From assembly GCA_963826115.1 (NCBI GenBank), contig CAWGVS010000002.1, forward strand, positions 64,001 to 128,000: a stretch of 64,000 nucleotides of DNA, given 5' to 3'. The notes beneath the pieces are model-generated. The model was not told the origin of the DNA, ran no database searches, and saw only the letters and a list, made by a program, of their open reading frames with translations. Below, piece by piece: positions 6,826 through 27,016 of this stretch (its first letter is position 1; every line of letters begins with the position of its first letter). The position numbers and the translations under genes were made by a program. Source of the DNA: an uncultured Candidatus Rokubacteria bacterium. GTDB taxonomy: Bacteria; Methylomirabilota; Methylomirabilia; Rokubacteriales; DASRDR01.

Positions 6826-6996
6826 CCGGCTTCCGCGCAACGCGCCCGATCAGCCCACGGATGGCCGCCGCGGTAGGCGGAGGTCATGGGGAACGAGATC
6901 ACGGCGGCGCCGCTGCCCGCGGGTCGACGACGCGGGCCGGGCCGGGCCCCGCATTTCCCTCGATTCCACGCGCCGGAACGCACTAGAATTCGGGCT

Positions 6997-9603
6997 GTGG
7001 CGGACCCGGTGGTCGAGGGCCGCGCCCTGGTGACGGAGGCGATCCGGTCGCTGGCGATCGCCTGCCGGGCCTGGGCGGCCTACCCTTCCGAGCATCCGAA
7101 CGTGACCCAGGCGGTGGGCGCCGCGCAGACGCGCGTCGGCGAGATGCTGGCGGTTCACGGCTCGGTGGCGCTCGGTATCTCGAAGAACCAACTCCGGGTC
7201 GGCGTCTGGACGTTCGAGTCGGCCCAGGCCCGCGGCCTCGCCCAGGCCCTCTACCGGCGCCAGGCGGCGGTCCTGCGCCTCGAGCGCGGCGTCCAGGCGG
7301 ACGAGCTCCGGGCGCTGGTGCAGTGGCTCGCGGGCCCGGCGGTGCCGCTCGAGCCGGGGGCGGCCGCCGCCGGGCCGCCGACGCTCCCCACCGCGCGCCA
7401 CCTCCACCTCCAGCCGCTCGACTACTCCGCCGTCCGGCTGACCGATCGCCTCGGCGAGGCGCAGATCCAGCTGCCCCTCGGCCCGGAGGCCGCCACGGCC
7501 GTCTCGCTGAGCGACCGCCTGCTGAACGTCCTCCTCGAGTGGGCCGTGCCGGCCGAGGCGGACTGGAGCGGTGACGAGCCCGCGAAGCCTGGAACAGTCC
7601 CGGCCGAGATCGCGATGGTCGCGTGGCTCAAGAACTTCCTGGAAGGTCAGAGCGCGCGCGATCGCGGCGAGGCGGCGGACGGCGGCGCGACCGCGGCGGG
7701 CGCCGGCGGCCCCGTCGGTGAGGGCGGCGCGGGTGGCGGCCTGGGCGGGACTGGTAACGGCGCCGGGACGGGCGAGAGCGGCACGGGCCACGGGTCCGGA
7801 GCGGGCGGCGCGGGTGACGGCTCGGGAACCGCGATCGGCGAGGCCGACGCCGCGCCCGGCGCTACCGGACAGGCGGCCGCGACGCTCTTCCCCGACGCGG
7901 GCGTGGGCACGGCGGGCGCACCGGGCCCGGCGGGCGCGGGGATCCCGGCGGCCGCCGGCACGGCCACGGCGCCGGGCAGAGACGCCGGCCCGACGCGGGG
8001 CGCCGGCATCGTGGGGCTCGGGTCAGACACGGGGGCGACCCGCGAGGGCGACGAGGGCATCGACGCGCCGGGCCCGGCGCCCCGGCAGCTCCTCGTGAGG
8101 CTCTCCGAGGCGACGACCGCGCACCTCGAGGCCACCTCGGGGGCGGGCCGCGCGCTCGCCGCCCGGCAGACGGCGCAACTCATCATGCGGCTCCCCGAGG
8201 GGCTCCGCGACAGCCTCATGCGCGCCGCGCTCCGGGTCGTCGCCGCCGATCCGGCCGGGGAGGACGCCCTCCAGGCGTTCACCTCGTCGATGAGCGCCCA
8301 CCCGGTCCTCCGCGTCATGCGCCAGCTAGGGGCCGAGGGCGTGCCGCTCTCGCGCCACGCGCAGCGGCTCGTCGAGCTACTCGCCTCCACGCGGCCCGAC
8401 TCGGAGTCCGACGAGGTGCCGGCCCAAGACCTGGAGACCCTCCGCGCGGAGCTCCTCACGCTGTTCCGCGAGGAGGACATCGACCGCTACAACCCGGAGG
8501 ACCACCTGGCGCTCCTCGCGCGCGCGATGCTGGCGTGGCCCACGCGCACGCCGGTCGAGCTCGGGACGCTCGAGACCCTCGGAGAGCGGGTCGGGACCTT
8601 GACCGAGGACGCGGTCGGCCACCAGCTCGCCGAGACGCTCCTCGACCTCCTCGGCCGCTACGCCGACGACAAGCTCGGCGCGGTCCTCGGCCGGCTCGAG
8701 CAGCTCGTCCAGGGAGCGCTCGCCCGCGGCTCGCTCGACGAGGCCGCCTTCGCCATCGAGGGGATGACGCGACTCGCGGGCGATGAGGCCGTGGCCGAGC
8801 CGACGCGGGTGGCGATGCGGAACCAGCTCGAGCACCTCGCGAGCCCGGAGACCCTGTCGGCACTCGCCGCCTCGCTCGGCGGCACGCCCAGCCCCGGCGC
8901 GGTCCGGCTGGTGCGGCTCCTCGGGCCGGGCGCGATCCGGAGCCTTCTCGACGTGCTGGTCCACGAGAAGGTCCGCGTCCGCCGCCGCCGGGTCTTCGAC
9001 CTCCTGTCCGCCCTCGGGCCCGAGGTGGTCCAGGAGGCCACGCGCTGGCTCACGGATCCGAACTGGTACGTCGTCCGCAACATCATCGCGCTCCTCCGCG
9101 CGGTGGGCGACCGCACGTCCTTGCCCGTGGTGCGACGGCTGACGGGCCACGGCGACCTGCGCGTCCGCCTCGAGGCGCTGCGGAGCCTCCTCGAGCTCGA
9201 CCCCGCCGTCGGGCAAGACTACCTCCTGAGCGCCATCGCCGATCCGGATCCGCGCGCGGCGACGGCGGCGGTGGAGGTGGCGGGCCAGCGCGGCGGGCCC
9301 ACCATGGTGGAGCCACTCCTGGGCGTGCTCGCGCCCTGGGATTTCCGGGGGCAGCGGCGCGCCGTGCGGCTGGCCGCCCTCCAGGCGCTCGGCCGCGTGG
9401 GCCGCCCCGAGGCCTTGCCGCGCCTGGCGCGCTTCTTCCGCGAGCGCTGGGGCCCGTTCCCCGCGGCCACCGAGCGCCGCGCGGCCTTCGAGTCGCTCCA
9501 GGGTTACCCGCCCGACGCGCGAGCCTGGCTCGTGATGCGCGGGCTCCGCTCGCGGGATCCCGAGATCCGCGCGGTGTGCGAGCGCCTCCGGAGTGAGGGA
9601 TGA
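6997..9603 (+). CDS. HEAT-repeat protein with Gly/Ala-rich linker
   Basis: N-terminal YPSEHP motif; C-terminal HEAT units (LTDPNWYVVRNIIALL, HGDLRVRLEALRSL); GTG start 7 nt after TAGAAT. Confidence 0.82.
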   Translation: MADPVVEGRALVTEAIRSLAIACRAWAAYPSEHPNVTQAVGAAQTRVGEMLAVHGSVALGISKNQLRVGVWTFESAQARGLAQALYRRQAAVLRLERGVQADELRALVQWLAGPAVPLEPGAAAAGPPTLPTARHLHLQPLDYSAVRLTDRLGEAQIQLPLGPEAATAVSLSDRLLNVLLEWAVPAEADWSGDEPAKPGTVPAEIAMVAWLKNFLEGQSARDRGEAADGGATAAGAGGPVGEGGAGGGLGGTGNGAGTGESGTGHGSGAGGAGDGSGTAIGEADAAPGATGQAAATLFPDAGVGTAGAPGPAGAGIPAAAGTATAPGRDAGPTRGAGIVGLGSDTGATREGDEGIDAPGPAPRQLLVRLSEATTAHLEATSGAGRALAARQTAQLIMRLPEGLRDSLMRAALRVVAADPAGEDALQAFTSSMSAHPVLRVMRQLGAEGVPLSRHAQRLVELLASTRPDSESDEVPAQDLETLRAELLTLFREEDIDRYNPEDHLALLARAMLAWPTRTPVELGTLETLGERVGTLTEDAVGHQLAETLLDLLGRYADDKLGAVLGRLEQLVQGALARGSLDEAAFAIEGMTRLAGDEAVAEPTRVAMRNQLEHLASPETLSALAASLGGTPSPGAVRLVRLLGPGAIRSLLDVLVHEKVRVRRRRVFDLLSALGPEVVQEATRWLTDPNWYVVRNIIALLRAVGDRTSLPVVRRLTGHGDLRVRLEALRSLLELDPAVGQDYLLSAIADPDPRAATAAVEVAGQRGGPTMVEPLLGVLAPWDFRGQRRAVRLAALQALGRVGRPEALPRLARFFRERWGPFPAATERRAAFESLQGYPPDARAWLVMRGLRSRDPEIRAVCERLRSEG

Positions 9604-14425: not shown

Positions 14426-15583
14426 CTACGCGGCGCGGCGAATCGCGGGCCGCGGCCACCGCCCGAGCGCGAGCGGAACGCAGGCGAGACACGCGAGGCC
14501 GAGCGTCACGTACAGGATCGCCGGCGACGACACCGAGAGGACCGAGGTCGCGAGGACGGGGCCGATGAAGGACCCGCCGATGCGCGCCGAGTTGATGATG
14601 CCGATCGCGCCCCCGCTCCCCCGCTGCGCGGTCCGCGCGACCACCAGGGGGAAGATCGGCGCCGCGAACAGGACCTGGAGGAACCGCACGGCCGCGAACC
14701 CCCAGGCGCTCTGCGGGAGCGCCATCGCGGCCATCAGGAGCCCCGAGGAGACGAGCAGCGCCGCGATCAGCGTCGATTCCGGCAGGAGCGCCGCCAGGCG
14801 CGGCGTCGCCAGCGCGCCGAGGCCGGCGGCCACGGCCGACACGAAGACGAGGAGGCCGCCCACCTCCACGACGCGGTCGGGCGCGACGCCCAGGCGCGGG
14901 AGGATCTCGGGCAGCACGGCCGTCAGGAAGAAGAGCTGGTTCGAGACCGCCAGGACGAGCGCCACCGGGAGGACGAGGTCGCGGACGCGCACCGGCGAGG
15001 TCTCGAGCCGCGGGCGCTGGAGGTGAGGCGGGAGCCGCACCCCCCACTGCACGAACGCCGCCGATCCGAGGAGGATCACGCCGCCCAGCACGAACGACGG
15101 CCGGAACCCGACGCGCGCCGCGGCCGCCGCGCCGCCGAGTGGCCCCAGCACCTGCCCCATGGTCATCGCGAGCTGGACCGCCGCCACCTCGCGGCGCACC
15201 TCCCCGGGGTCGGTCCGCCGGCTCGCGATGATGAAGGCGAGCGTCGACGCCGCCCCCATCGCACCCAGGATCAGGCGGGCGACGAAGAGCTGCGGCAGCG
15301 TGTGGGCGATCGCCATCCCCATGAAGGCCAGGCCCTGGAAGACCTGCACCAGGGTGTACTGCTGGCGCGGATCGCCGCGCTCGCCCACCCGGCCCCAGGC
15401 CGGGCTCGTCAAGACCGTCACGAGCGAGGAGATACCGAGGATCCAGCCGGCCCAGCGGAGCGTGGTCCCGGGGTCGTAGGTGGTGATCGACTGGATGTAG
15501 AAGGGCAGGCTGATGAAGGCGAACGACCACGCGAAGCTCCCGAGGAACATCGAGATCGTGAGGGGGCCGGCGATCCGGGGCAT
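14426..15583 (-). CDS. MFS transporter
   Basis: About 12 hydrophobic segments; WGRVGERGDPR motif A variant; ARLILG. Confidence 0.9.
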   Translation of the reverse strand: MPRIAGPLTISMFLGSFAWSFAFISLPFYIQSITTYDPGTTLRWAGWILGISSLVTVLTSPAWGRVGERGDPRQQYTLVQVFQGLAFMGMAIAHTLPQLFVARLILGAMGAASTLAFIIASRRTDPGEVRREVAAVQLAMTMGQVLGPLGGAAAAARVGFRPSFVLGGVILLGSAAFVQWGVRLPPHLQRPRLETSPVRVRDLVLPVALVLAVSNQLFFLTAVLPEILPRLGVAPDRVVEVGGLLVFVSAVAAGLGALATPRLAALLPESTLIAALLVSSGLLMAAMALPQSAWGFAAVRFLQVLFAAPIFPLVVARTAQRGSGGAIGIINSARIGGSFIGPVLATSVLSVSSPAILYVTLGLACLACVPLALGRWPRPAIRRAA

Positions 15584-15637: not shown

Positions 15638-16918
15638 TCAATCGCGGAGGAGCAGGCGCGGGCCCACCAGCGTGAGCCATGGCCAGTAGGTCACCACCCC
15701 CAGCATCAGGACCATGACGGCCAGGTACGGCCAGAGCGGCCGCAGGACGCGCGAGAGGGGCTCGCGGGAGATGGAGCACGCGACGAAGAGGCACGTCCCC
15801 ACCGGCGGCGTCACGTAGCCGATACCGAGGTTCGCCAGGAGGATGATCCCGAAGTGGACCACGTCGATCCCGAACCGCTCCGCCATCGGCAAGAGGATCG
15901 GCACCAGGATCACCAGGAGGGCCGTCGCGTTCAGGAAGCAGCCGCCGATCAGGAACAGGACGTTCACCAGCACGAGGAACACCCAGGGGCTCGGCGAGAG
16001 CGCGAGGATCAGGCTCGCCAGGGTCGCCGGGACGCGGTGCACGGTGAGCACCCACGCGAAGAGACCGGCCAGCCCGAGGAGGAGGCTCACGATCCCGGTC
16101 GTGACGGCCGACTCGGTCAGGAGCCGCGGCATGTCCCGCCATCCGAGCTCGCGGTAGTAGAAGAGCGCCACCGCGAGGCCATAGAGGACCGCCACCGCGG
16201 CCGACTCGGTGGCGGTGAAGATGCCGCCGAAGATGCCGCCGAGGATGATCACCGGCATGATCAGCGCCGGAAGCGCCTCCAGTACGGCGCGCCGGATTTC
16301 GGCGGCGGTTGCCCGCGGCTCGGTCGGGAGCCCGTGGCGGCGGGCATAGATCCACGTGTAGAGCATGAGCGCCGCCGCCGTGGCCAAGCACGGGAGGAAG
16401 CCGGCGGCGAAGATCGCGGCCACCGAAGCGTTCGCGAGCCAGCCGTAGATCACGCCGGTGATGCTGGGCGGGATCAGGACCGCCATGCCGCCCGCCACCG
16501 CGACGATGGCCGTGGCGAACGGCGCCGGGTAGCCGAGGCGGATCATCGCCGGGATCGTCACGGAGCCGATGGCGGCCGCGTCGGCGGCCGACGAGCCCGA
16601 GACCTCCGAGAAGAAGATCGTCGCGACGATCACGACCAGACCGAGGCCCCCGGGCAGGTGGCGCACGAGGACGTTGGCGAGGTTCACGAGCCGCCGGCCC
16701 ACCCCGCCCGTCTCGAGGAACGCGCCGGCCAGGACGAAGAGCGGCACGGCCAGCACCGGGAACGAGTCGAGCGACGTGAAGATCTTCTGCGGGAGGACCA
16801 GGAGCGGCGTGCGCCCGTCGACGACCGTCGTCACCAGCGCGGCGAGCCCCAGCGAGAAGGAGACGGGGGCGTTCAGGAGGAGGAGCGCGCCGAAGACCCC
16901 GAACAGGAGCGCCGTCAC
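15638..16918 (-). CDS. dctM: TRAP transporter large permease (DctM)
   Basis: SFPVLAVPLFVLAG, SGSSAADAAAIG, LIPPSI, GIFTATESAA, TPPVG; GTG start overlaps dctQ stop. Confidence 0.93.
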   Translation of the reverse strand: MTALLFGVFGALLLLNAPVSFSLGLAALVTTVVDGRTPLLVLPQKIFTSLDSFPVLAVPLFVLAGAFLETGGVGRRLVNLANVLVRHLPGGLGLVVIVATIFFSEVSGSSAADAAAIGSVTIPAMIRLGYPAPFATAIVAVAGGMAVLIPPSITGVIYGWLANASVAAIFAAGFLPCLATAAALMLYTWIYARRHGLPTEPRATAAEIRRAVLEALPALIMPVIILGGIFGGIFTATESAAVAVLYGLAVALFYYRELGWRDMPRLLTESAVTTGIVSLLLGLAGLFAWVLTVHRVPATLASLILALSPSPWVFLVLVNVLFLIGGCFLNATALLVILVPILLPMAERFGIDVVHFGIILLANLGIGYVTPPVGTCLFVACSISREPLSRVLRPLWPYLAVMVLMLGVVTYWPWLTLVGPRLLLRD

Positions 16919-17379
16919 GGGGAGGCGGTCCCGCGGCAGCGCCGGCGCGCGCTGGCGGCGAGACTCCATGCCATCAGCAGGGCGGCCACCGGGATCGCCG
17001 CATAGGGCCAGGTCATGGGGATCTCGAGGGCCGCCGACGGCTGCTCGCGGACGCGCCATGCGAGCGACGCGCCGTGCCAGGCGAGGAGGGCGGCGAAGGC
17101 GGCGCACAGGAGGTCGATGCCCGCCGCGAGCCGGCGCGCGACGCCCCCCGGGAAGCGGGTCGTCAGGAGATCGAGCGAGAAGTGCACGCCGCGGTCGACC
17201 CCGAGGGCGGCCCCGAGGAGCGCCACCCACACGAACAGGTAGCGCGCGGCTTCCTCGGGCCAGGCCGCCGGATGCTGGAAGACGTAGCGCGTCAGGACCT
17301 GGAAAGCGACCACGCCGGTGATCGCCGCCATCAGGCCGGCCGACACCAACTCGACCAGCCGGCGGACGGCCGGCGTCAC
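16915..17379 (-). CDS. dctQ: TRAP transporter small permease (DctQ)
   Basis: QVLTRYVF..WPEEAARYLFVW..HFSLDLL; 4 TM; lies between dctP and dctM. Confidence 0.9.
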   Translation of the reverse strand: MTPAVRRLVELVSAGLMAAITGVVAFQVLTRYVFQHPAAWPEEAARYLFVWVALLGAALGVDRGVHFSLDLLTTRFPGGVARRLAAGIDLLCAAFAALLAWHGASLAWRVREQPSAALEIPMTWPYAAIPVAALLMAWSLAASARRRCRGTASP

Positions 17380-18365
17380 CGGAGCGCCTGGATCTGCCGG
17401 ATCTTCTCGAGCCCGATGCCCTTGCCGTACTGCTCGTAGACGGCCTGCACGGCCTTCTGGTAGGGACCGAGGTCGTCGGGCACCACCACGGTCCGTCCCT
17501 TGGCCCGGAGCTCGGTGAGGTTGCGGTTCTCCTCTTCCTCGTTGATCTGCCGCTCGAACACGAGCGAGTCACGGAACGCCTGCTCGAGCGGCCCACGGAC
17601 GTCAGCCGGCAGCGCCTGCCATCGGGACTCCGCGATCCCCACGACCACGACCGTGATCAGGTACCGGATGTGGAGGACGTGGGGCGCGACCTCGTCGAGC
17701 TTCGAGGTCCGGTACGTCACGATGTTCCCCTCGCCCGCGTCGACGACGCCCGACTGGAGCGCCGAGTACACCTCCGGGAACGGGATGGGCGTCGGGATCG
17801 ATCCCAGCGCGCGCCAGGTCGCGGTGACGATCGGGGCCTCGAGCGTCCGGACCTTCAGCCCCTTCAGGTCGTCCATGCCGCGGAGGGGCTTCCGCGCGTA
17901 CACGCCGCGCGTCCCTCCGGTGTAGAAACCGAGGACGCGGATGCCCTTCTTCAGCGCGGCCGCCCGCATCTCGGCGCCGCCCGGGCCGTCGAGGTAAGCA
18001 TGGAGGTGGGCGAAGTCGCGGAAGAGGAACGGGAGGTCCAGCACCTCCAGCTCCTTGACGACCCGGCTCGCGACCGCGGCCGTGGGCATCGCCATCTCGA
18101 CGGTGCCCACCTGCATCCCCTCGACCATCTCACGCGACCCGCCGAGCTGGGCCGAGGGGAACACCTGGACGTCGAGCCGGCCGTTCGTCAGCTCGCTGGC
18201 TCGCTTGCTCATCACCTCCGCCGCCCGCGTGTAGGGATGCCGCGGGTCGACCTCGAGCGCGTAGCGGAGCGTGACCTTGTCCTGCGCCGTCACGCGCGTC
18301 GCCGCGGCGCCGGTCGCGCAGAGCGTCACGAGGGCGAGAAGCGCGAGCCGCCAATCGGGTCTCAT
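17376..18365 (-). CDS. dctP: TRAP transporter substrate-binding protein (DctP)
   Basis: Signal peptide; VFPSAQLG, DLPFLF, DLKGLKVRT, EVYSALQSGVVDAGE; AGGAGG SD. Confidence 0.93.
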   Translation of the reverse strand: MRPDWRLALLALVTLCATGAAATRVTAQDKVTLRYALEVDPRHPYTRAAEVMSKRASELTNGRLDVQVFPSAQLGGSREMVEGMQVGTVEMAMPTAAVASRVVKELEVLDLPFLFRDFAHLHAYLDGPGGAEMRAAALKKGIRVLGFYTGGTRGVYARKPLRGMDDLKGLKVRTLEAPIVTATWRALGSIPTPIPFPEVYSALQSGVVDAGEGNIVTYRTSKLDEVAPHVLHIRYLITVVVVGIAESRWQALPADVRGPLEQAFRDSLVFERQINEEEENRNLTELRAKGRTVVVPDDLGPYQKAVQAVYEQYGKGIGLEKIRQIQALR

Positions 18366-18537
18366 GCGTGTCCTCCTGGTGCGGGATCCGCGCCGGCCGG
18401 CGCTGGGCCGATAGTCCGTGGCGGCGCCGGACACTGTCAAGGGCCCCGCGGTCAGCGGGCACGCGCCCGTTGCGCCCGTCAACAACCCCGTCGGACAATG
18501 CCGGCGGGCCCCGAGGCGGGCCGGAGGGAGCTGCCGG

Positions 18538-19780
18538 ATGTCGCTGACCCTGCTCAAGAACGCGAAGCTCCTCGACCCCACGAAGTCCGACCTCCAGGAC
18601 GGCGTGGCCGTGCTCGTCGAGGGCGGCCGGATCCGGGAGGTCTCGCCCCGGCCGATCCGCGCGGCCGGCGCGACCGTCGTCGACGTGGGCGGCCGGACGC
18701 TCATGCCGGGACTGATCGACTGCCACGTCCACGTGTTCCTGCCCGAGGTCAACATCCGGGCGCTCGAGGCGGTGCCCCTCACCCTTCTGACCGCGCGGGC
18801 GGCGCCCCTCATGCGCGCCATGCTGGACCGGGGCTTCACGACCGTGCGCGACACCGGCGGCGCCGACTGGGGCATCCGGGAGGCGGTCGAGCGCGGCTAT
18901 CTCCCCGGCCCGCGGCTCTTCATCGCGGGGCGCGCGATCGGCCAGACGAGCGGCCACAGCGACCCGCGGCGACGGACCGACCTCGGCGGCGGCTGCCCGA
19001 CCGAGAACGCCATGGCGTTCACCATGGCCATCGCCGACGGCGTGACCGAGGTGCGGCGGGCCGTCCGCGAGCAGCTCCGCCAGGGCGCCGACCACATCAA
19101 GATCATGGTGTCGGGCGGCGTGGCCTCGCCCTACGACCCGCTCGACAGCCTCCAGTACTCGACCGGACGAGATCCGCGCCGCGGTCGAGGAGGCCACGGC
19201 GTTCAAGCGCTACGTCTGCGCTCACGCCTACCCCGCGAACGCGATCGCGCGCGCCATCGAGTGCGGAGTCCGAGTGATCGAGCACGGGAACCTGATCGAC
19301 GCGCCCACGGCGAAGCTCATGGCGAAGAAGGAAGCGTTCCTCGTCCCGACGCTCGTGGCCTACGACGCGATCCGCCGCCACGCCGCCGAGTTCGGCATGG
19401 GGCCGGAGAACCTCGAGAAGAACACGGTCGTGCTGGAGGCGGGCCTCCGCTCTCTCGAGCTCGCCAAGCGCGCGGGCGTCCGCATGGCGTTCGGGTCGGA
19501 CCTCCTGGGCCAGCTCCAGCCCGACCAGTCGAAGGAGTTCCTCCTGCGGAGCGAGGCGCTGAGCCCGCAGGAGATCATCCACGCGGCGACGATCGTCGGG
19601 GCCGAGCTCCTCGGTCGCCCCGGCGAGCTCGGAGTGATCGCGCCCGGTGCCCTCGCCGACCTCCTGGTGGTCGACGGGAATCCCCTGAAGGACCTGGGCC
19701 TCTTCCAGGAACAGGGCGCGCACATCCCGGTCGTGATGCAGGACGGGCGCTTCCACCGGAACCGGCTCGGCGCCGGATGA
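18538..19780 (+). CDS. Metal-dependent amidohydrolase (prolidase-like), with 1-bp frameshift near 19165
   Basis: MPGLIDCHVH, GFTTVRDTGG, GADHIKIMVSGGVAS; after the shift AHAY, IEHGN, FGSD, ADLLVVDGNP. Confidence 0.9.
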
Positions 19781-19859
19781 CGGCCACCGTGGCGGTCGGC
19801 AGCTTCGCCGCGCGGCCGACGTCCTGGCCTGAGCGACGCGGGCTTCGCGAGGGCGTCAG

Positions 19860-21047
19860 CTACTCGGCGGGTACCAGGCCGCGCGCCTGTGAGGCGCGGT
19901 AGTCGACGAGCTGGGCGATGGTCGCGTCGATGGCGGCGCCGAGCTCCGCGTGCCACGGCTGCGACGCGCTGTGGGCCAGCAGCAGCCGCTCCACTCGCGC
20001 CGCGTCGAGCCGGGCGGGCACGTTCCGCTTGAGCCGGGCGAGCTTCTTGCGCCGGCGGGCGCTCAGCCGGGCGCCGTCGTTTCCCTCGCGCTCGCCCGCC
20101 GCCTCCGGATGAAATCGCCGGTCGGCCTCGATCCGGTGCAGCGCGCGGAGGCTCTCGCCGGCCACGTAGTCGGCGGGTCGGAGCGGACCGCCCCGAATCT
20201 CTCGCAGTCCGTCGTAGAAGGGCCGCAAGTAGTCGATGTCGTGGATTCGGGGCAGGTCGTTGCTGGCCATGGCGAGCCGCTCGAGCCCCACGCCGATCCC
20301 GGTGGCACCGGTCTCGAGCGGCTCGAGCCCCACGATCTCCTCGCGGCGAGGCTCCGACCCACGGAAGCGTGGCCGCCACACCAGGTACTCGGCCGTCGCC
20401 ACGTCGAGCAGCCGCGGGTGGCCGGACACCCCCATGTCGACATGGACCTCGTTCCGGTAGCCCCACGGCGTGGGGCGATGCACGTGCAGCGCGAGCAGCG
20501 TCGCGCGCGTGGCGTCCGCCGTGAGGTTCGCGTCGGGCACCCCGGCCGCGAGGAACGCGTCCCGGGAGATCGTGTCAGGAGGAATGGCGCCGTCGAACCG
20601 GTACGCCCCGCCGGTGAGGTCGGCGATCCGCCCGCCGGCCGAGTAGCTCGCGTGGATGCGCGCCGGTGGAATCCCGACCGTCTCGAGGAGCCGGATCAGC
20701 TCGGCGATCTGCCAGCGCTGGAGTGAGTCGTAGTCCGGGCGGACGCGAAGAGCGATCTCGCCGCACAGGTCGCCCATCTCGAAGACCCCCAGGTAGCGCA
20801 CCCCGTCGGCCGTCGACAAGAACGCGAAGTCGGCGAGGCGGACGCAGCTCTGGATGGTCGAGAAGACGTAGTCCCGGTGCCAGTCGAGATAGCCGCCGAA
20901 CTCCCGCAGCCAGTGGTGCTCGGTGGAGCTCAGGTTGAAGTCACCGGGGAAGGCCGCCGTGACCAGGGGCGCTCGGCGAACGGGCTGACACCCCGCATAC
21001 TTCGGCCAGCCGGCGAGGAGCGCGCGGAGGCGCGCGTAGGGAATCAT
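19860..21047 (-). CDS. Alanyl-tRNA-synthetase-like protein, catalytic domain only (divergent paralog)
   Basis: TIQSCVR (motif 2), YLGVFEM, WGYRNEVHVD, LEPLETGATGIGVGLERLA (motif 3), IHDIDYLRP; 395 aa, no editing or C-Ala domain. Confidence 0.75.
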   Translation of the reverse strand: MIPYARLRALLAGWPKYAGCQPVRRAPLVTAAFPGDFNLSSTEHHWLREFGGYLDWHRDYVFSTIQSCVRLADFAFLSTADGVRYLGVFEMGDLCGEIALRVRPDYDSLQRWQIAELIRLLETVGIPPARIHASYSAGGRIADLTGGAYRFDGAIPPDTISRDAFLAAGVPDANLTADATRATLLALHVHRPTPWGYRNEVHVDMGVSGHPRLLDVATAEYLVWRPRFRGSEPRREEIVGLEPLETGATGIGVGLERLAMASNDLPRIHDIDYLRPFYDGLREIRGGPLRPADYVAGESLRALHRIEADRRFHPEAAGEREGNDGARLSARRRKKLARLKRNVPARLDAARVERLLLAHSASQPWHAELGAAIDATIAQLVDYRASQARGLVPAE

Positions 21048-22657
21048 CGCGCGGAGTTGGCCGGGGCCGCGGGCCCCCGGGCGGGGGGGCCGGAGTGGCA
21101 GTGGAGCACCTTGCCCGAGCGCTCGCCGATCGGCGCCCGGACCTCGACCCGGAACACGCCGGTGTCCCGCCAGAGAAGCGCGGCCACGCGGGCGGCGCCG
21201 GCGCCGGCGCCGACGTGATCCAGAAAGGCGGTCGCCACCGCGCGCGGGTCGACCGGGCCCACCCGCGGGCTCACGAAGAGCACGAGGCCCGGGCGGCCGG
21301 CGGTATCTTCCTCCTCGACCAGCTGGTAGTCCGCCCCGGAGCCCCCGAACCGTGCGGGCAGCACGGTCTCCAGCGCCGCGACCGCATCCGTGTCAAGGAG
21401 CGTCATCCCGCCGGCCGTGAGCTTCTCGAAGCTCCGGACCGCGTGGAGGTGGGTCGTCCACCCGAGCGCCTCCAGCGGGCACCCGCAATGGCGCCGGGTC
21501 AGGATCCCCTCATCGCCGAGCGAGACGTTCAGGAGCGTGAGGGGCGCCGTCGGGCGGAGCGACGACACCAGGAGGGCGCCCGGCGGGAGCAGCGCGCCGG
21601 AGGCCGACCCGGCCTGGACGACGGCGTGCAGGTCGTCGAAGACGTGGATCTCGTCGGGCGACGCGGGCGCCAGGCAGCCCTCGCCGATCCGGCCCACCTC
21701 CATGCTCCCGTAGTGCGGAAGGGCGTCGACACCGGCCGCCCGGATGACGGAGAGACGCGCGGGGGTGACCGGCTCGCCGCCGATGGACATCCGGCTGCCC
21801 GCGAGGTCGAGCCCCGCCTCGCGGGCCCCGTGGCACAAGGCGACGGCCGAGCTCGGGAAGGTCGCGAGGTGCGGTGTCTGGCCGGCGTCGAGACAGCGAC
21901 GCATCCACGCTCCGACCGTCCGGGTACCATCGAGCGGCGCCCAGACAGGCGGCGGCAGCCTCGTGCCAACGACGCGACCGGCCCAGCGGAGGGCCCGGGC
22001 GGTCCAGGCATAGCGCGGATCGAGCTCGCGACTCGCGGGATCGATCTGGGAGAACCATGCCTCCGTCGGGACGCCGAGCGCGGCATGCTGGAGGAGGACG
22101 ACGAGCGCGGCGCCGCCCGGTACCACCCAGAGCGCGTGGCGCCAGCCCACCCCCTGGCGAGCCTCCAGCACGAGCCGCGCGTTCACGGCCCGATCACGAA
22201 AGTAGCGGATGTCCAGCGACACACGCGTCGCCGGGCCGCGGCTCCCGCTGCTCCGGTAGACCATGTGCGAGGCGGTCAGCGGGTTCGCGAGGCTCGCCGG
22301 GGCCACGTCGAAGGTGGTCGACCCCCGGATGACCGGCCGCCGGCCCTTCGCCTCGTCCGCAGTCAGGAAGACCCCGTGGCGCGCCAGGCGGGTGAGCGTC
22401 GACTCCACGCCGTCCTGGGCGACCATCCGCTCAAGATCGGCGTACGCGCAGCCCGCCATCGCCAGGAGCCGAGCGTAGGGGCTCGCCGCCTGGCCGAAGG
22501 CCGCGCGGCGGACCAGCGTGAGGAAGTCGGCCGACCGGGCCTCCTGGCGAGACCGGAGGGCGGCACGCGCTATCGGGCCGCTCATGGGTCGGCGGAAGAG
22601 GCCGGGGAGCCGCGCGACCAGCCGCACCCCTCGTATCGCGTCGGCCGCCCAGGACAC
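21044..22657 (-). CDS. PaaK/CapK-like adenylate-forming enzyme
   Basis: RSSGSRG (P-loop), IGGEPVT, HYGSMEVG, LLNVSLGD, terminal ERSGKVLH; GTG start 2 nt after upstream stop. Confidence 0.78.
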   Translation of the reverse strand: MSWAADAIRGVRLVARLPGLFRRPMSGPIARAALRSRQEARSADFLTLVRRAAFGQAASPYARLLAMAGCAYADLERMVAQDGVESTLTRLARHGVFLTADEAKGRRPVIRGSTTFDVAPASLANPLTASHMVYRSSGSRGPATRVSLDIRYFRDRAVNARLVLEARQGVGWRHALWVVPGGAALVVLLQHAALGVPTEAWFSQIDPASRELDPRYAWTARALRWAGRVVGTRLPPPVWAPLDGTRTVGAWMRRCLDAGQTPHLATFPSSAVALCHGAREAGLDLAGSRMSIGGEPVTPARLSVIRAAGVDALPHYGSMEVGRIGEGCLAPASPDEIHVFDDLHAVVQAGSASGALLPPGALLVSSLRPTAPLTLLNVSLGDEGILTRRHCGCPLEALGWTTHLHAVRSFEKLTAGGMTLLDTDAVAALETVLPARFGGSGADYQLVEEEDTAGRPGLVLFVSPRVGPVDPRAVATAFLDHVGAGAGAARVAALLWRDTGVFRVEVRAPIGERSGKVLHCHSGPPARGPAAPANSAR

Positions 22658-22659
22658 GG

Positions 22660-24042
22660 TCAGATCTGCCCGGTTGCGCCGCACGCCTCGATGCGTCGGA
22701 CGTACGCGGGGTCGTCGTAGCGGGAGAGGAGGAAGGCGGAGGCGTAGTCCGGCAGCGGCGCGCCGGTGACGTGGGCCGCGGCCAGCTCGCCGCCGGCGCA
22801 GCTCGCCATGATGCCGAAGCCCGAGTACGCGCTCGAGACGTAGGCGCCCTCGACCGGGAGCGGTCCGATGAGCGGCCGGTTCTCGCGCGTCTTCGCGTAG
22901 TAGCCGCCGTCGACGTAGGCGCGCGGCATCGGGTCGAGGTAGCCTCGGAAGCCCGGCAGCATGCGCGCCATCCCGCGGATCACGAGCTCGGTGTAGAAGG
23001 GCGGCTCCGGCATCGGGAACACGACCTCGGTCGCCGCCGAGTCGTACGACCAGAGCACGAGCAGCGTCCGGCTCTCCGGGCTCGCGCCCTCGGGGCGCGT
23101 GTGGACGCCCGGCGGGAACGGCTCGAGCATCCAGCGGAGCTCGGGATCCGCCGCGAGGGCCGCCCGCTCCTCGGCACTCCACGGAAGCGTCTGCCCGTCG
23201 TCCCAGATGAGGAACGGCGCGTCCCGCGGGACCGCGCCGAGCGTGTCCTCGATCGCGATCTTGTGGTGCTGCTCGGAGAACACGGGGAGCGTGAGCCCGA
23301 GGAGCCGCGCGGCGTCGGGAAGGAGCGGCCCCGCCGCGAGGACCAGGCGCGCGGTCGCGAGCGACCGCGAGCCGCCCGGCCCGTCGATCCGGACCCCGGT
23401 GACACGCCCTCCGACGACGTCGATCGCCGCGAGGCGCCCGGTGACGAGCTCGGCGCCGGCCCGGCGGGCGAGCTCGAGGAGATGCATCCCCAGCTGCTGC
23501 CCGGAGAGCCACCCACAGCGGCGCGCGTGGAGGAGCGCCACGGTGTCGTCGGCAACGTACGGGAAGTGGCGGCGGATCAAGGCGCGATCGAGGAGCAGGT
23601 CGATCCCCGCGGGCTGGGCATGCCAGTCCCCCGCCGAGGGCGGCGGGTAGACGGCCCGAGCGGCACCGCCGTCGTGGACCCGGAGCGGCCCCGCGCCCCA
23701 GCCGGCCACGGTCTCGGCCATCGCCCGGAGCTCGGCGGCGCGCGCCGGCGCCGCCGTCCCGAAGACATAGCCCCGCCGGTTCATGCGGAACACGTTGTCG
23801 CTCGCGTCGGCGAGATGCTCGAGGAGGTCGATGCTGCGGTTCATGAACCGCACCATCGCGTCGTCGGGGCCCGGCCAGAAGTTCCGGTAGGCCTCGGTCG
23901 ACTTGTCGCTCGTGAGCGACAGCGGCGGCCGCTCGTCCACGAGGACGACCCGCCGCACGCCGTGGCGCGCGGCCAGGTGGTAGGCGGCCGCGACGCCGGC
24001 GATGCCGGCGCCACAGACGACGACGTCGGCCGCGGGCGTCAC
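22660..24042 (-). CDS. FAD-dependent oxidoreductase (DAO/sarcosine oxidase beta-like)
   Basis: VVVCGAGIAG Rossmann motif; LVLAAG; YYAKTRENRPLIGP; SGFGIMAS. Confidence 0.88.
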   Translation of the reverse strand: MTPAADVVVCGAGIAGVAAAYHLAARHGVRRVVLVDERPPLSLTSDKSTEAYRNFWPGPDDAMVRFMNRSIDLLEHLADASDNVFRMNRRGYVFGTAAPARAAELRAMAETVAGWGAGPLRVHDGGAARAVYPPPSAGDWHAQPAGIDLLLDRALIRRHFPYVADDTVALLHARRCGWLSGQQLGMHLLELARRAGAELVTGRLAAIDVVGGRVTGVRIDGPGGSRSLATARLVLAAGPLLPDAARLLGLTLPVFSEQHHKIAIEDTLGAVPRDAPFLIWDDGQTLPWSAEERAALAADPELRWMLEPFPPGVHTRPEGASPESRTLLVLWSYDSAATEVVFPMPEPPFYTELVIRGMARMLPGFRGYLDPMPRAYVDGGYYAKTRENRPLIGPLPVEGAYVSSAYSGFGIMASCAGGELAAAHVTGAPLPDYASAFLLSRYDDPAYVRRIEACGATGQI

Positions 24043-24061
24043 GAGCCCGGGACCCGCGTGG

Positions 24062-25402
24062 CTAGTCGCGGAGGCGGCGGACCACCCGGTCGACGGCGCC
24101 GACCAGCTCGTCGATCTCCGTCTCGGTGGTCATGACGCCGAGGGCGCCCGCGCACGTGGTCTGCATCAGGATCCCCTCGTTCAGCAGGCCCGTGTAGAGA
24201 CCGCGCGTCATCTCGGCGTCGTCCGCGACGACGTCGCGGTAGCTCCGGATCGGCCGCGCGTTGAAGTGGATCCCGAACAGCGAGGCGGCCCCCGTCACCT
24301 GGGTCGGCACCCCGGTCGCCTGGAGCGTCCGGCGGAGCTTCTCCCGGAGCGACTCGCCCAGCTCGGCGAGGCGCCGGTAGATCGGCGGCGTCAGCGCGCG
24401 CATGACCGCCTCCCCGGCGACGAGCGTCATCGGGTTCGCGTTGAACGTCCCCGCGTGGGCGATGCGCGCCCCGCCGGCCGCCGTGGGGTCGTACTGGGCC
24501 ATGATGTCCCGGCGGCCGCCGAAGGCGCCGATCGGCAGGCCCCCGCCGATGATCTTCCCGAAGCAGGTGAGGTCCGGCGTCACGCCGAAGAGCTCCTGGG
24601 CGCCCCCCGGCGCGACCCGCAGGCTCTGCACCTCGTCGTAGATCAGGACGATGTTGAGCTCCTCGGTCAGCTTCCGGATCCCGCGAAGGAACTCCGGGTC
24701 GCCGGGGACGTAGCCGAAGCTCGAGACGATCGGCTCCATGATCAGGGCGCCGATCTCGTCCTTGTGGGCGCGGAGGATCCGGTCGCACGCGGGCAGGTCG
24801 TTGTACGGGAGCACGACCACGTCCCGGAGGACGCCCTCGGGCTGGCCGGGGTACTCGGGGATCGCCGACGGCCCCTTCGGATCCAGGCGGTCCGCCGAGG
24901 GCCGGACGCTCACCGCCACGTGCTCGTGAGCGCCATGGTAGCCGCCCTCGAACTTCGCGAGCTTGTGCTTGCCCGTGAACGCCCACGCGGCCCGGATGGC
25001 CATGAGCGTCCCCTCGGTGCCCGAGTTCGTGAAGCGGATGGTGTCGAGCGAGGGGATGCGGTCGCAGAGGAGCCGCGCGACCCGGACCTGCACCTCGGTC
25101 GGGGTGCTGAAGGCCGTGCCCTTCCGGATCTGCTCGCCGAGCGCCTCGACGACCATCGGGTTCGCGTGTCCCACGATGAGCGTCGTCGCGTTCAGCATGA
25201 AGTCGAGGTAGCGGTTCCCGTCGACGTCGTAGACGTAGTGCCCGTCGCCGTGGTCCGCGAAGAAGGGATAGGGCGAGAAGTAGGCGGTGCCGCGGGAGCT
25301 CCCGCCGGGCAGGACCTGCTCGGCCTCGGCCTGGAGGGCCCGGGACTTGGGGGTCTTCGCGGTGTACCGCTCGATCTCTCGGGCGACGGCCTTCGACGTC
25401 AT
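24062..25402 (-). CDS. Class III PLP aminotransferase (GSA-aminomutase-like)
   Basis: DVDGNRYLD, RFTNSGTE, FEGGYHG, LIYDEV, DLTCFGKIIGGGLPIGAFGG, AGTFNANP; GGAGG SD before MTSKAV. Confidence 0.92.
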   Translation of the reverse strand: MTSKAVAREIERYTAKTPKSRALQAEAEQVLPGGSSRGTAYFSPYPFFADHGDGHYVYDVDGNRYLDFMLNATTLIVGHANPMVVEALGEQIRKGTAFSTPTEVQVRVARLLCDRIPSLDTIRFTNSGTEGTLMAIRAAWAFTGKHKLAKFEGGYHGAHEHVAVSVRPSADRLDPKGPSAIPEYPGQPEGVLRDVVVLPYNDLPACDRILRAHKDEIGALIMEPIVSSFGYVPGDPEFLRGIRKLTEELNIVLIYDEVQSLRVAPGGAQELFGVTPDLTCFGKIIGGGLPIGAFGGRRDIMAQYDPTAAGGARIAHAGTFNANPMTLVAGEAVMRALTPPIYRRLAELGESLREKLRRTLQATGVPTQVTGAASLFGIHFNARPIRSYRDVVADDAEMTRGLYTGLLNEGILMQTTCAGALGVMTTETEIDELVGAVDRVVRRLRD

Positions 25403-25502
25403 GGACTCTCCTCCGCATTCGGCGCGCTCGGACCGCCGCGCCTGCGCGGAAAAGGATTCCACGACCGTCCGCGCGCCGCAAGGCCCGCCCGGACGTCGAG
25501 GT

Positions 25503-25566
25503 CCGGGGTCAGATCCCGACGTTGCCTTTTTCCGCGCCGGAAGTCGAAGTCAGGGCCGGACCCCGG
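25503..25566. repeat. Degenerate REP-like inverted repeat
   Basis: CCGGGGTCAGATCCCGAC...GTCAGGGCCGGACCCCGG; perfect outer 8 bp (CCGGGGTC/GACCCCGG), imperfect inner arms. Confidence 0.45.
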
Positions 25567-25587
25567 CGCGTGCTTTACCCTGGGGCG

Positions 25588-25989
25588 ATGGAGGCGCGGG
25601 TCCGCCGGGCCCTCGAGACCGAGCGCACCATCGACATCACCACGATCGGGCGCACCACGGGGCGCCCGCGGCGGATCGAGATGTGGTTCCACAACCTCGA
25701 CGGCCGGCTCTACCTCACGGGCACACCGGGGACCCGCGACTGGTACGCCAACCTGCAACAGCACCCGGTCTTCATCTTTCACCTCAAGGGCCGGGTGCGG
25801 GCCGACCTGCCGGCGCGCGCCACGCCCATCGTGGAGCCGGCGCGGCGCCGGGCCATCCTCACGCCGCTCCTCGACCGTCTGGGCCGGGCGGCGGACCTGG
25901 AGGCGTGGGTCCGCGAGAGCCCGCTGGTCGAGGTGGAGATCTTCGCCGTCGAGCCCGGAGCCGGCGCCGGCGAACCCCCGACGGCCTGA
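25588..25989 (+). CDS. Deazaflavin(F420)-dependent nitroreductase-like / split-barrel protein
   Basis: IDITTIGRTTGRPRRIEMWF...RDWYANLQQHP. Confidence 0.8.
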   Translation: MEARVRRALETERTIDITTIGRTTGRPRRIEMWFHNLDGRLYLTGTPGTRDWYANLQQHPVFIFHLKGRVRADLPARATPIVEPARRRAILTPLLDRLGRAADLEAWVRESPLVEVEIFAVEPGAGAGEPPTA

Positions 25990-26047
25990 CGGCTTCCCGG
26001 CCAACTCACTCGGCCCGGTCCGGACGGCCGGGCGGGCCGGCGCCGCC

Positions 26048-26076
26048 TGGACACCCCCGGCCGCGTCGGGTACCGT
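26048..26076 (+). promoter_or_regulatory. sigma70-type promoter for the EamA gene
   Basis: TGGACA-17bp-TACCGT. Confidence 0.45.
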
Positions 26077-26134
26077 CGGCGAGGCCACGCCGGGATCCGG
26101 GCGCGCCCGGAAGCGGGGCTCCGAAGGAGGCGCG

Positions 26135-27016
26135 GTGGACCGGCCCCAGAGCGTGACGCGGGCGCTCGCCTACATGGTGGGGGCCGCGGTCGCGTTCGCG
26201 ATCCTGAACGCCGCGGTCAAATCGCTCCGCGGCGAGATCCCGACGGTCCAGCTCGTGTGGGTGCGGACGCTGGGCCACCTCCTCTTCGTGATCGCCGCGT
26301 TCGCCCCGCGCCACGGGTGGAAGCTCTTCGAGACCCGGCATCCCGTCTTCCAGCTCGTCCGCTCCTGCCTCCTCCTCACCTCGACCGTCTTCTACTTCAC
26401 GGCGATCGGCTTCGTCACCCTCGCGACCGCCGCCACGATCTCGTTCATGACGCCGTGCCTGATCGCGGTGCTGGCGGGGCCGATGCTCGGCGAGCGCGTC
26501 GGGCCCCGCCGCTGGGCCGCCGTGGGCTTCGGCTTCCTCGGCGTGCTGATCGTGGCGCGCCCGGGCGCGGACACCGCCAACCTCGCGTCCCTCCTGGTGC
26601 TCGGGAGCGCGGCCGCCTCGGCCCTCTACGACCTCCTCACCCGGCGTGTCGTCGCCGCGGACCCGCCGGAGACCGCCGTCGGCTACGCCGCCGTCGTCGG
26701 CACGGTCGTCCTGGCCATGGTGGTGCCGTTCGTGTGGACTCCGCCGCGGTCCTGGTCGAGCCTCCTCATCATGCTGAGCCTCGGACTCTGGGGCGGGCTC
26801 GGGCACTACCTCACCGCCCGCGCGTACCACTGCGCGCCCGCGTCGGTGGTCGCGCCGTTCTCGTACCTGCAGCTCGTGGGAGCGGCGATCAGCGGCTATC
26901 TCGCGTTCGGCGAGGTGCCGGGCGCCGGCGTGTGGCTCGGCGCCGGGCTGATCGTGGCGAGCGGGCTCTTCCTCGTCTACGCCGAGGGCCGCGCTCGCCG
27001 CGCCGCGGGCGCCTGA
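26135..27016 (+). CDS. DMT/EamA family transporter
   Basis: 10 TM; LGERVGPRRW, VLIVARPG, ASVVAPFSYLQLV, FGEVP; AAGGAGG SD. Confidence 0.92.
   Translation: MDRPQSVTRALAYMVGAAVAFAILNAAVKSLRGEIPTVQLVWVRTLGHLLFVIAAFAPRHGWKLFETRHPVFQLVRSCLLLTSTVFYFTAIGFVTLATAATISFMTPCLIAVLAGPMLGERVGPRRWAAVGFGFLGVLIVARPGADTANLASLLVLGSAAASALYDLLTRRVVAADPPETAVGYAAVVGTVVLAMVVPFVWTPPRSWSSLLIMLSLGLWGGLGHYLTARAYHCAPASVVAPFSYLQLVGAAISGYLAFGEVPGAGVWLGAGLIVASGLFLVYAEGRARRAAGA

Follow-up and report, generated by a model that had tools for sequence, protein, structure and literature searches.

What does a protein make that has kept the catalytic core of alanyl-tRNA synthetase (AlaRS), has discarded the rest, and lies in a genome with a complete AlaRS of its own? 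The question is raised by a gene in a 64,000-nucleotide stretch of contig CAWGVS010000002.1 from an uncultured Candidatus Rokubacteria bacterium, which we call the window. The gene occupies positions 19860 to 21047 and codes for 395 amino acids. A sequence-only reading had taken it for a truncated AlaRS paralog with its ATP site kept and its alanine pocket rebuilt, and had not stated the strand, which is the minus strand. Our profile, structure and genome comparisons bear this description out and go beyond it, to a whole unannotated family centred on DPANN archaea and bacteria of the candidate phyla radiation (CPR), to a pairing with PaaK-family genes, and to relatives that abut tRNA-like genes. 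We see about an even chance that the protein is an ATP-dependent, adenylate-forming ligase for an acid other than alanine.

That truncated synthetase paralogs exist as a class is already known, and they have repeatedly proved to be new enzymes, in elongation factor P lysylation, tRNA modification, mycothiol and asparagine synthesis and ascamycin alanylation. The new element here is a coherent family, still without annotation, whose active site is distinct, whose spread among lineages is unusual and whose link to tRNA-like elements is unexplained. The substrate of such an AlaRS-like family, once found, would add a reaction to class II synthetase chemistry.

An AlaRS core and its active site

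The reading frame starts with ATG, and its GC content by codon position (0.74/0.51/0.91) is the coding signature of this window of 73% GC. The gene and its two domains are as follows.

19860..21047, minus strand: AlaRS-like gene (P0001), 395 amino acids, stop included in the coordinates; recognised by its open reading frame (ORF), coding GC and AlaRS homology by profile, hhalign and fold.
20262..21047, minus strand: class II aminoacylation domain, about residues 1-262, with motif-2 Arg70, Asp73 and Phe89, the WGYRNE strand (Gly196, Arg198, Glu200), the D-V-A-T-A-E strand (Asp215, Thr218, Glu220) and motif 3 (Gly254-Leu-Glu256-Arg257); delimited by the secondary structure of the model, the E. 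coli AlaRS residue map and conservation in 58 relatives.
19863..20261, minus strand: shortened helical domain, about residues 263-395, with Arg301, His304 and Asp309; corresponds to the first part of the AlaRS tRNA-recognition domain.

All the motifs on which the sequence-only reading was built are present in the translation: QSCVR, VFEM, WGYRNEV, LEPL...GVGLERL, IHDID and AGESLRALHRIEAD. The translation also shows TGIG where AlaRS has VDTG, and DVAT where AlaRS has EIWN.

Homology was evaluated at the level of the family. A HMMER scan of 1.84 billion protein representatives returned 116 relatives at E <= 1e-3 (100 at <= 1e-10), mostly of 350-410 amino acids and at most 533, with no full-length AlaRS among them. 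For the alignment and profile we chose by hand 58 of the 116 as near-full-length rows, excluding fragments, the 96%-identical P0003 and most rows longer than 410 amino acids. Against the PDB the top 15 matches of this profile were all AlaRS (E 4.1e-15 to 4.4e-6), headed by the AlaRS structures 9jc7/9jdn, and the first match outside AlaRS was PylRS (E 0.013). The match to AlaRS begins in the motif-2 region and reaches profile position 375 (chain residue 356), well inside the helical domain. Alignment by hhalign to residues 1-461 of E. coli AlaRS gave 97.9% probability and E 4.6e-13 over 295 columns, ending at E. coli residue 328. The AlphaFold model is confident (predicted local distance difference test, pLDDT, 94.8; predicted template modelling score, pTM, 0.93), and Foldseek placed AlaRS catalytic fragments first (E 1.5e-15, template modelling score, TM, 0.73). 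The resemblance to AlaRS is far beyond chance, and AlaRS stands first in both the profile and the structure searches, in keeping with the class II fold assumed earlier.

The helical region, described earlier as a remnant, is present in the model as helices at residues 275-388. Since the protein ends within this domain, it has neither an editing nor a C-Ala domain, as had been supposed.

Taken alone, the sequence reveals little of this. It is far below the curated AlaRS models, with 10 bits against the NCBIfam alaS model TIGR00344 (cut-off 457) and Pfam PF01411 likewise not reached, and in the PDB it has only weak matches to human AlaRS fragments (E = 1). The search against tRNA-synt_2c that had been proposed as a check succeeded only in part: the single sequence matches no Pfam family at E up to 10, but two 533-residue relatives match tRNA-synt_2c directly, one above the cut-off (E 7e-9) and one at E 1.9e-5. 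Both carry the family signature given below, and they therefore form a bridge between the family and AlaRS. Among ten long relatives tested, one (P0218) passed PF01411, with 35.2 bits against 30.3, and none had additional domains.

The nearest fold outside AlaRS is GlyQ, the alpha subunit of bacterial GlyRS, which shares its class II subclass with AlaRS. Membership in the GlyQ family was rejected: it is a second-tier Foldseek match (E 1.4e-6) with a TM of only 0.35, and it is absent from the profile matches in the PDB at E up to 10.

Likeness to the AlaRS catalytic fragment (residues 1 to about 440; 9jc7/9jdn, 3hxu, 4xem, 1riq) thus extends to the two-domain fold, the collinear motifs, the motif-2 Arg, the adenine-stacking Phe and the motif-3 G-x-E-R, and the ADHxR and xAD helix motifs are partly kept. 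The differences are equally consistent. Identity is 15-16%, the motif-2 loop of the family is four residues shorter, the helical domain is reduced, and the family has an invariant Arg198 at the second Cys of GPCGPC. Asp235, Asn212 and Val214 of E. coli AlaRS are replaced, respectively, by a hydrophobic or small residue, by Thr and by Glu.

These replacements can be read against AlaRS with bound ATP and alanine (9jc7/9jdn). In that structure the adenine is sandwiched between motif-2 Phe89 and motif-3 Arg232, the alpha-phosphate is held by Arg68 and the alanine methyl is touched by Val204 (PMC12143591). The alpha-amine is bound by an acidic residue, Asp225 in this enzyme and Asp235 in E. coli. 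By alignment the equivalents in the window protein are Phe89, Arg257 and Arg70 for ATP, and Glu220 and Gly250 at the Val and Asp positions of the alanine site; Val214 of E. coli was equated with Val204 of DH-1 by the same 10-residue offset that separates Asp235 from Asp225.

Conservation in the 58 relatives follows this division. The three ATP-contacting residues, Arg70, Phe89 and Arg257, are present in 58 of 58, as are Asp73, Gly196, Arg198 and Gly254. Glu200, aligned to the Glu of the CTEI strand, is found in 56 (Asp in the other two), and position 215, aligned to the Glu of EIWN, is Asp or Glu in every relative. Thr218 and Glu256 each occur in 57. Glu220, at the position of the methyl-contacting Val, occurs in 53 of the 58. 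At the Asp235 position 52 of the 58 rows were tallied; they have I, L, V, A, P or G there and never an acidic residue. The resulting signature is Q-x-x-x-R-x-x-D, W-G-Y-R-N-E, D-[IV]-[AG]-T-x-E and G-x-E-R. Judged by alignment, then, retention of the ATP site and rebuilding of the alanine pocket, both proposed earlier for the single protein, hold for the whole family. Arg198, Thr218 and Glu220 probably line the pocket, as they align to two pocket-lining strands of AlaRS.

The alpha-amine Asp and the methyl Val being lost, alanine in the manner bound by AlaRS is ruled out. An invariant ATP triad and two conserved acidic residues are what one would expect if acyl-adenylate formation had been retained. 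We would therefore picture a stand-alone enzyme derived from the AlaRS catalytic core, with its class II aminoacylation domain and a helical domain cut short, which most likely binds ATP and forms an acyl-adenylate from an acid other than L-alanine, and which would then hand the acyl group to an acceptor. One may speculate that with the amine-binding Asp lost and a Glu gained the amine of the substrate lies elsewhere or is absent, as in a D-, beta- or hydroxy-acid. The family offers a clean test case for the rebuilding of an amino-acid pocket around an ATP site that stays fixed.

The family in DPANN archaea and CPR bacteria

Every relative named by its source is a "hypothetical protein", and a precomputed Pfam domain is attached to none of them except one distant 533-residue protein. 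In the ESM Atlas, too, all the clusters obtained are named "hypothetical protein"; 15-23% of their members carry PF01411. A full-text search over a limited collection of papers found no description of the family, and in the same collection AcmF of ascamycin biosynthesis was the only characterised AlaRS catalytic-core paralog found.

To see where the gene occurs we compared 44 loci from species-representative genomes. One belongs to a second Rokubacteria metagenome-assembled genome (MAG; 86% identity) and three to high-GC delta-/proteobacterial MAGs (54-58%). The remaining loci are those of DPANN archaea (Woese-, Pace-, Nano- and Iainarchaeota) and CPR bacteria (Saccharibacteria, Paceibacterota, Berkelbacteria and others). 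The family, with an invariant active-site signature of its own, is thus shared by ultra-small organisms, archaeal and bacterial, and a few soil bacteria with large genomes. Within the phylum of the window the gene is rare, being found in 2 of 201 genomes with the window's own counted, and in one of 10 other genomes of its genus. No relative was found on viral contigs or plasmids.

How did these distant lineages come to share the gene? In a quick maximum-likelihood tree of 41 rows (LG+G4, rooted at the midpoint only to draw it) two groups separate, one of 17 rows dominated by CPR bacteria and one of 24 dominated by DPANN archaea. The window sequence clusters with the three high-GC bacterial MAGs with an SH-like approximate likelihood ratio test (SH-aLRT) support of 100, and within the DPANN-dominated group the neighbour of this clade is a sequence from Woesearchaeota (SH-aLRT 95); the four high-GC rows of the clade differ in composition from the other rows. 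Such a placement is what horizontal acquisition would give, in a direction that only a reliable root would make readable.

In some genomes there is more than one copy. The Nanoarchaeota MAG L024 has two truncated AlaRS-like paralogs in tandem (6871-8004 and 8001-9194), the first on a very long branch, and in the Paceibacterota genome G004 a second copy, further diverged, occupies a 437-residue frame (G004:C3:57171-58244). In the CPR phylum of G004 the A1 profile matched 242 of 401 genomes, all except G004 at 103 bits or less; these matches, mostly in frames of about 600 amino acids, are read as canonical AlaRS, so that the 400 further genomes contain no clear family member.

The only neighbour conserved widely among the 44 loci is a winged helix-turn-helix (wHTH) regulator of about 250 amino acids, resembling TrmBL2, which lies divergently just upstream of the AlaRS-like gene in about 19 of them (DPANN and CPR, among L008-L047). 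Pfam recognises a TrmB wHTH domain in it (E about 1e-13), and its match to TrmBL2 is full-length (E 7.9e-9). In a Berkelbacteria locus (L045:7944-9575) about 140 C-terminal amino acids of this regulator type are fused to the AlaRS-like module. The contexts in L005-L007 are heterogeneous.

In 8 of the 44 loci a tRNA gene lies within 150 nucleotides of the ORF on the same strand, where the density of tRNA genes in these loci would predict about 0.7; these eight are all in the CPR group and are not independent of each other. Elements in L034, L041 and L042 are mutually homologous, and with a covariance model made from these three, more copies were found directly beside the ORF in L036, L037, L039 and L044 and, weakly, in L038; in L043 tRNAs lie directly before the gene. 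In all nine members of one CPR subclade, therefore, the ORF abuts tRNA genes or tRNA-like elements. Examples of the regulator and the tRNA-like elements are located as follows.

L016:6481-7230, divergent from the AlaRS-like gene: TrmBL2-like regulator
L018:6089-6859, divergent from the AlaRS-like gene: TrmBL2-like regulator
L034:9224-9306: tRNA-like element
L036:9126-9211: tRNA-like element
L037:9130-9217: tRNA-like element
L038:2756-2839: tRNA-like element
L039:9135-9222: tRNA-like element
L041:6614-6698: tRNA-like element
L042:3141-3233: tRNA-like element
L044:7844-7944: tRNA-like element

Those of L034, L037, L039, L041 and L042 fold into cloverleaves whose acceptor, D and T arms are normal but whose anticodon arm is replaced by a hairpin of 8-11 base pairs with a loop of 3-6 nucleotides. 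Seven of 14 acceptor- and T-stem pairs have changed on both sides with pairing kept. The Rfam tRNA model made no call at gathering score for the four elements scanned (L034, L037, L041, L042). The window contains no such element, and none lies beside any DPANN or high-GC bacterial relative.

The PaaK-family partner and its surroundings

In the window the AlaRS-like gene is the last of four co-directional genes on the minus strand. The features of this region are, in the order of transcription and then outwards:

24062..25462, minus strand: class-III aminotransferase (HemL/GntE-like), first of the run; Pfam Aminotran_3, E 3e-59
22660..24042, minus strand: DAO-family FAD-dependent oxidoreductase; Pfam DAO, E 2.1e-33
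21044..22657, minus strand: PaaK-family (ANL) adenylating ligase by predicted fold, about 537 amino acids; start uncertain, GTG at 22657 or ATG at 22585
21044..21047, minus strand: ATGA junction, where the start of the AlaRS-like gene overlaps the stop of the PaaK-like gene (...GCG CGA TGA / ATG ATT CCC)
15638-18400, minus strand: TRAP transporter (DctP, DctQ, DctM), beyond a convergent amidohydrolase gene
14426-15583, minus strand: MFS transporter, also beyond the amidohydrolase
25522-25989, plus strand: F420H2/PNPOx-like gene, on the other side of the operon
about 26100-27016, plus strand: EamA transporter, on the same side

By this ATGA overlap, read directly from the sequence, the PaaK-like and AlaRS-like genes are translationally coupled. 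The PaaK-like protein itself is under the NCBIfam PaaK cut-off (16.4 bits against 700; E 0.0025) and matches no Pfam family at E up to 10. With its profile, PaaK-like ligases are recovered from the PDB (E 3.3e-4), and its model (pLDDT 86.2) matches PaaK1 by Foldseek (E 4.7e-16; best TM 0.53) and also NatL2, AjiA1, ClxA and HCL, of which NatL2, AjiA1 and ClxA are amide- or ester-forming enzymes. The modelled fold is thus that of a PaaK-family ANL adenylating enzyme. The two proteins may act in the same small-molecule pathway, for example by joining two activated acids in an amide or ester. A predicted complex of the two scored 0.00, which speaks neither for nor against binding.

The pair is also adjacent in the sister genome L004 and in metagenome contigs L057 and L058. 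In P0210 (684 amino acids, on a 51-kb ENA contig) residues 1-479 are PaaK-like and are joined to the first 138 residues of an AlaRS-like protein (532-669), an arrangement due either to a natural fusion or to a frameshift in the called gene. For seven further pairs at 61-83% identity the longest contigs of the PaaK-like and AlaRS-like clusters are equally long (3133, 17902, 6158, 4224, 7228, 8665 and 2837), which suggests adjacency there too; since the metagenome scan gave two near-identical loci only, adjacency at 60-80% identity is drawn from these matching sizes. The 54-58% relatives and all DPANN and CPR relatives have no PaaK-like partner, so that it appears as a lineage-specific addition.

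The two upstream genes have a history of their own. The aminotransferase scores 366.5 bits against NCBIfam PRK00062, under its cut-off of 398, and 305 bits against GntE. Adjacent orthologs of the aminotransferase and oxidoreductase, at 77-93% identity and for the oxidoreductase at 77-92%, occur in at least nine congeners that have no AlaRS-like gene, and the slot behind the pair is filled by unrelated genes in G101, G169 and G208. Because the pair occurs without the cassette and the slot is variable, what is present or absent as a unit is the two-gene PaaK-like/AlaRS-like cassette. Deducing a function from the aminotransferase and DAO genes of this operon is weakened by the same congeners.

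The PaaK-like family is itself hugely expanded and unannotated. This genome has 19 matches and one congener has 31, matches occur in 13 of 14 other genomes of the genus, and the protein database holds 1244 relatives, all "hypothetical" and without a Pfam domain. One copy (G000:C2:61037-62617) lies just beyond the window.

Convergent on the AlaRS-like gene is a plus-strand amidohydrolase similar to Xaa-Pro dipeptidase (about 18418-19780), split across two frames near 19046-19100. Its ortholog is one intact ORF of 521 amino acids in G101, and in G113 both halves lie in a single frame, so the split is either a frameshift specific to the window or an assembly error. A scan of 19000-26200 gave no promoter-like site and two terminator-like sites, not above shuffled sequence. 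No riboswitch or T-box was found at gathering score in the window or in the loci of ten relatives scanned. No carrier-protein gene was seen in the window, where small ORFs were not systematically searched.

Candidate reactions

If the protein is an enzyme, which reaction does it catalyse? Synthetase cores without accessory domains have been re-used several times for ATP-dependent acyl activation or for regulation outside translation, as in AsnA, EpmA/PoxA, GluQRS, MshC and HisZ. Amino acid:carrier protein ligases are built in the same way; these are SerRS-like proteins that activate Ala. None of these enzymes is known to be derived from AlaRS. In a review of synthetase paralogs those carrier protein ligases are the only entry placed under AlaRS (PMC9437257, Table 1).

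The precedent for an AlaRS-like core is AcmF, and it speaks against the use that the sequence-only reading made of it. There the AlaRS-like enzymes of ascamycin biosynthesis were cited in favour of an ATP-dependent ligase, but a review describes AcmF as an Ala-tRNA-dependent transferase (PMC12945691). Because it uses Ala-tRNA and not ATP, a tRNA-dependent reaction becomes a live rival: the AlaRS-like protein could move an aminoacyl group from a charged tRNA to a small-molecule amine without ATP. We regard this main rival as unlikely, though well worth weighing. As described there, AcmF likewise consists of just an aminoacylation and a tRNA-recognition domain, is not a housekeeping enzyme and has both the Asn and the Asp of the alanine site changed (PMC12945691). 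Our protein also retains a helical domain, tRNA genes abut it in the 8 of 44 loci, and the neighbouring aminotransferase and amine-type FAD oxidoreductase could supply an amine acceptor; this pair, however, exists without the AlaRS-like gene in the congeners mentioned above. The active sites differ more. In the same review AcmF is said to lack most ATP-binding residues, retaining the motif-2 Arg, stacking aromatics and one acidic residue, and its Gln and essential Glu232 stand at the Asn212 and Asp235 positions, where Glu232 holds the alanyl amine (PMC12945691). In contrast, our family keeps the Arg/Phe/Arg triad throughout, has Thr218 at the first of these positions and, in the rows tallied, has no acidic residue at the second. 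AcmF also lies in a nucleoside-sulfamate cluster with a dedicated AlaRS, AcmD (PMC12945691), and nothing such is seen here.

A tRNA may enter the reaction in another way, as the acceptor. As a sub-case of the adenylate-forming ligase, the protein might, with ATP, charge a tRNA or a dedicated non-decoding tRNA-like RNA at its 3' end with an acid other than alanine, which we consider quite unlikely. AlaRS recognises only the acceptor arm of tRNA, and the family keeps part of the helical domain that binds it; the cloverleaf elements in the CPR subclade, with their hairpin in place of the anticodon arm and their compensatory changes, are the kind of RNA that such an enzyme might use. Against this, neither the window gene nor any DPANN or high-GC bacterial relative has such an element beside it, the 400 further CPR genomes yielded no clear family member as an independent sample, and the covariance model also matches ordinary tRNAs of type-II length (long-arm) in the same genomes at 45-70 bits. 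The elements may thus be decayed tRNA-Leu-like copies in tRNA arrays, or else processing signals or integration scars. The helical domain is also shorter than in AlaRS, and the hhalign alignment stops before the region with the G3:U70-reading Asp of an Asp-plus-Asn pair. If the tRNA-like neighbours were indeed acceptors, we would have a natural synthetase-like enzyme with a private, non-decoding tRNA. The fullest form of this idea, a synthetase-like enzyme that charges a tRNA or non-decoding tRNA-like RNA with a non-alanine, possibly non-alpha-amino acid for extraribosomal acyl transfer and that spread horizontally among DPANN archaea, CPR bacteria and a few soil bacteria, is a long shot.

Several observations weigh against the ATP-dependent ligase for a non-alanine acid. 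The invariant residues of motifs 2 and 3 could serve, in place of ATP, the adenosine at the 3' end of an aminoacyl-tRNA or an adenosine-like substrate. An RNA partner is suggested by the retained helical domain and by the tRNA and tRNA-like genes next to the ORF in one CPR subclade. The placement of Arg198, Thr218 and Glu220 towards the pocket is read from the alignment to AlaRS strands. The PaaK-like partner, being absent beside most relatives, is not essential to the core chemistry of the family. In favour of the ligase, the long relatives that pass or come near Pfam tRNA-synt_2c share the family signature.

Could the protein instead be a catalytically inactive relic of AlaRS that binds or regulates, as a sensor, a scaffold or a tRNA-binding factor? 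The TrmBL2-like regulator beside so many DPANN and CPR genes and its fusion in L045 would fit such a role, and E. coli AlaRS is itself annotated as a transcriptional repressor. Pseudo-enzymes, however, usually lose the motif-2 and motif-3 arginines, and here the catalytic residues are strictly invariant across bacteria and archaea at 21-44% identity, as under purifying selection. We hold this explanation to be very improbable.

There is, finally, the housekeeping alternative, in which the protein is a spare or split AlaRS and makes alanyl-tRNA-Ala. Its AlaRS fold and its ATP site would allow this, but the idea is already contradicted and its probability is close to nil. A separate full-length alaS, which the sequence-only reading had asked to be looked for, is present on another contig of the same genome (932 bits, model positions 2-847), and the AlaRS-like gene is therefore not half of a split alaS. 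Canonical alaS was likewise above cut-off in all five DPANN and CPR host genomes tested, the alanine contacts are replaced, and the gene is present in only 2 of the 201 genomes of the phylum; on these grounds a spare or split alaS was rejected. The same genome has in addition two short editing-domain-like matches. The canonical AlaRS of the DPANN and CPR genomes is itself short: in G001-G005 and about 240 CPR genomes its frames have only about 600 amino acids, in which the aminoacylation and editing regions are matched and model positions beyond about 725 are not. The family profile scores these DPANN and CPR enzymes at up to 103 bits, against 36 bits for E. coli AlaRS.

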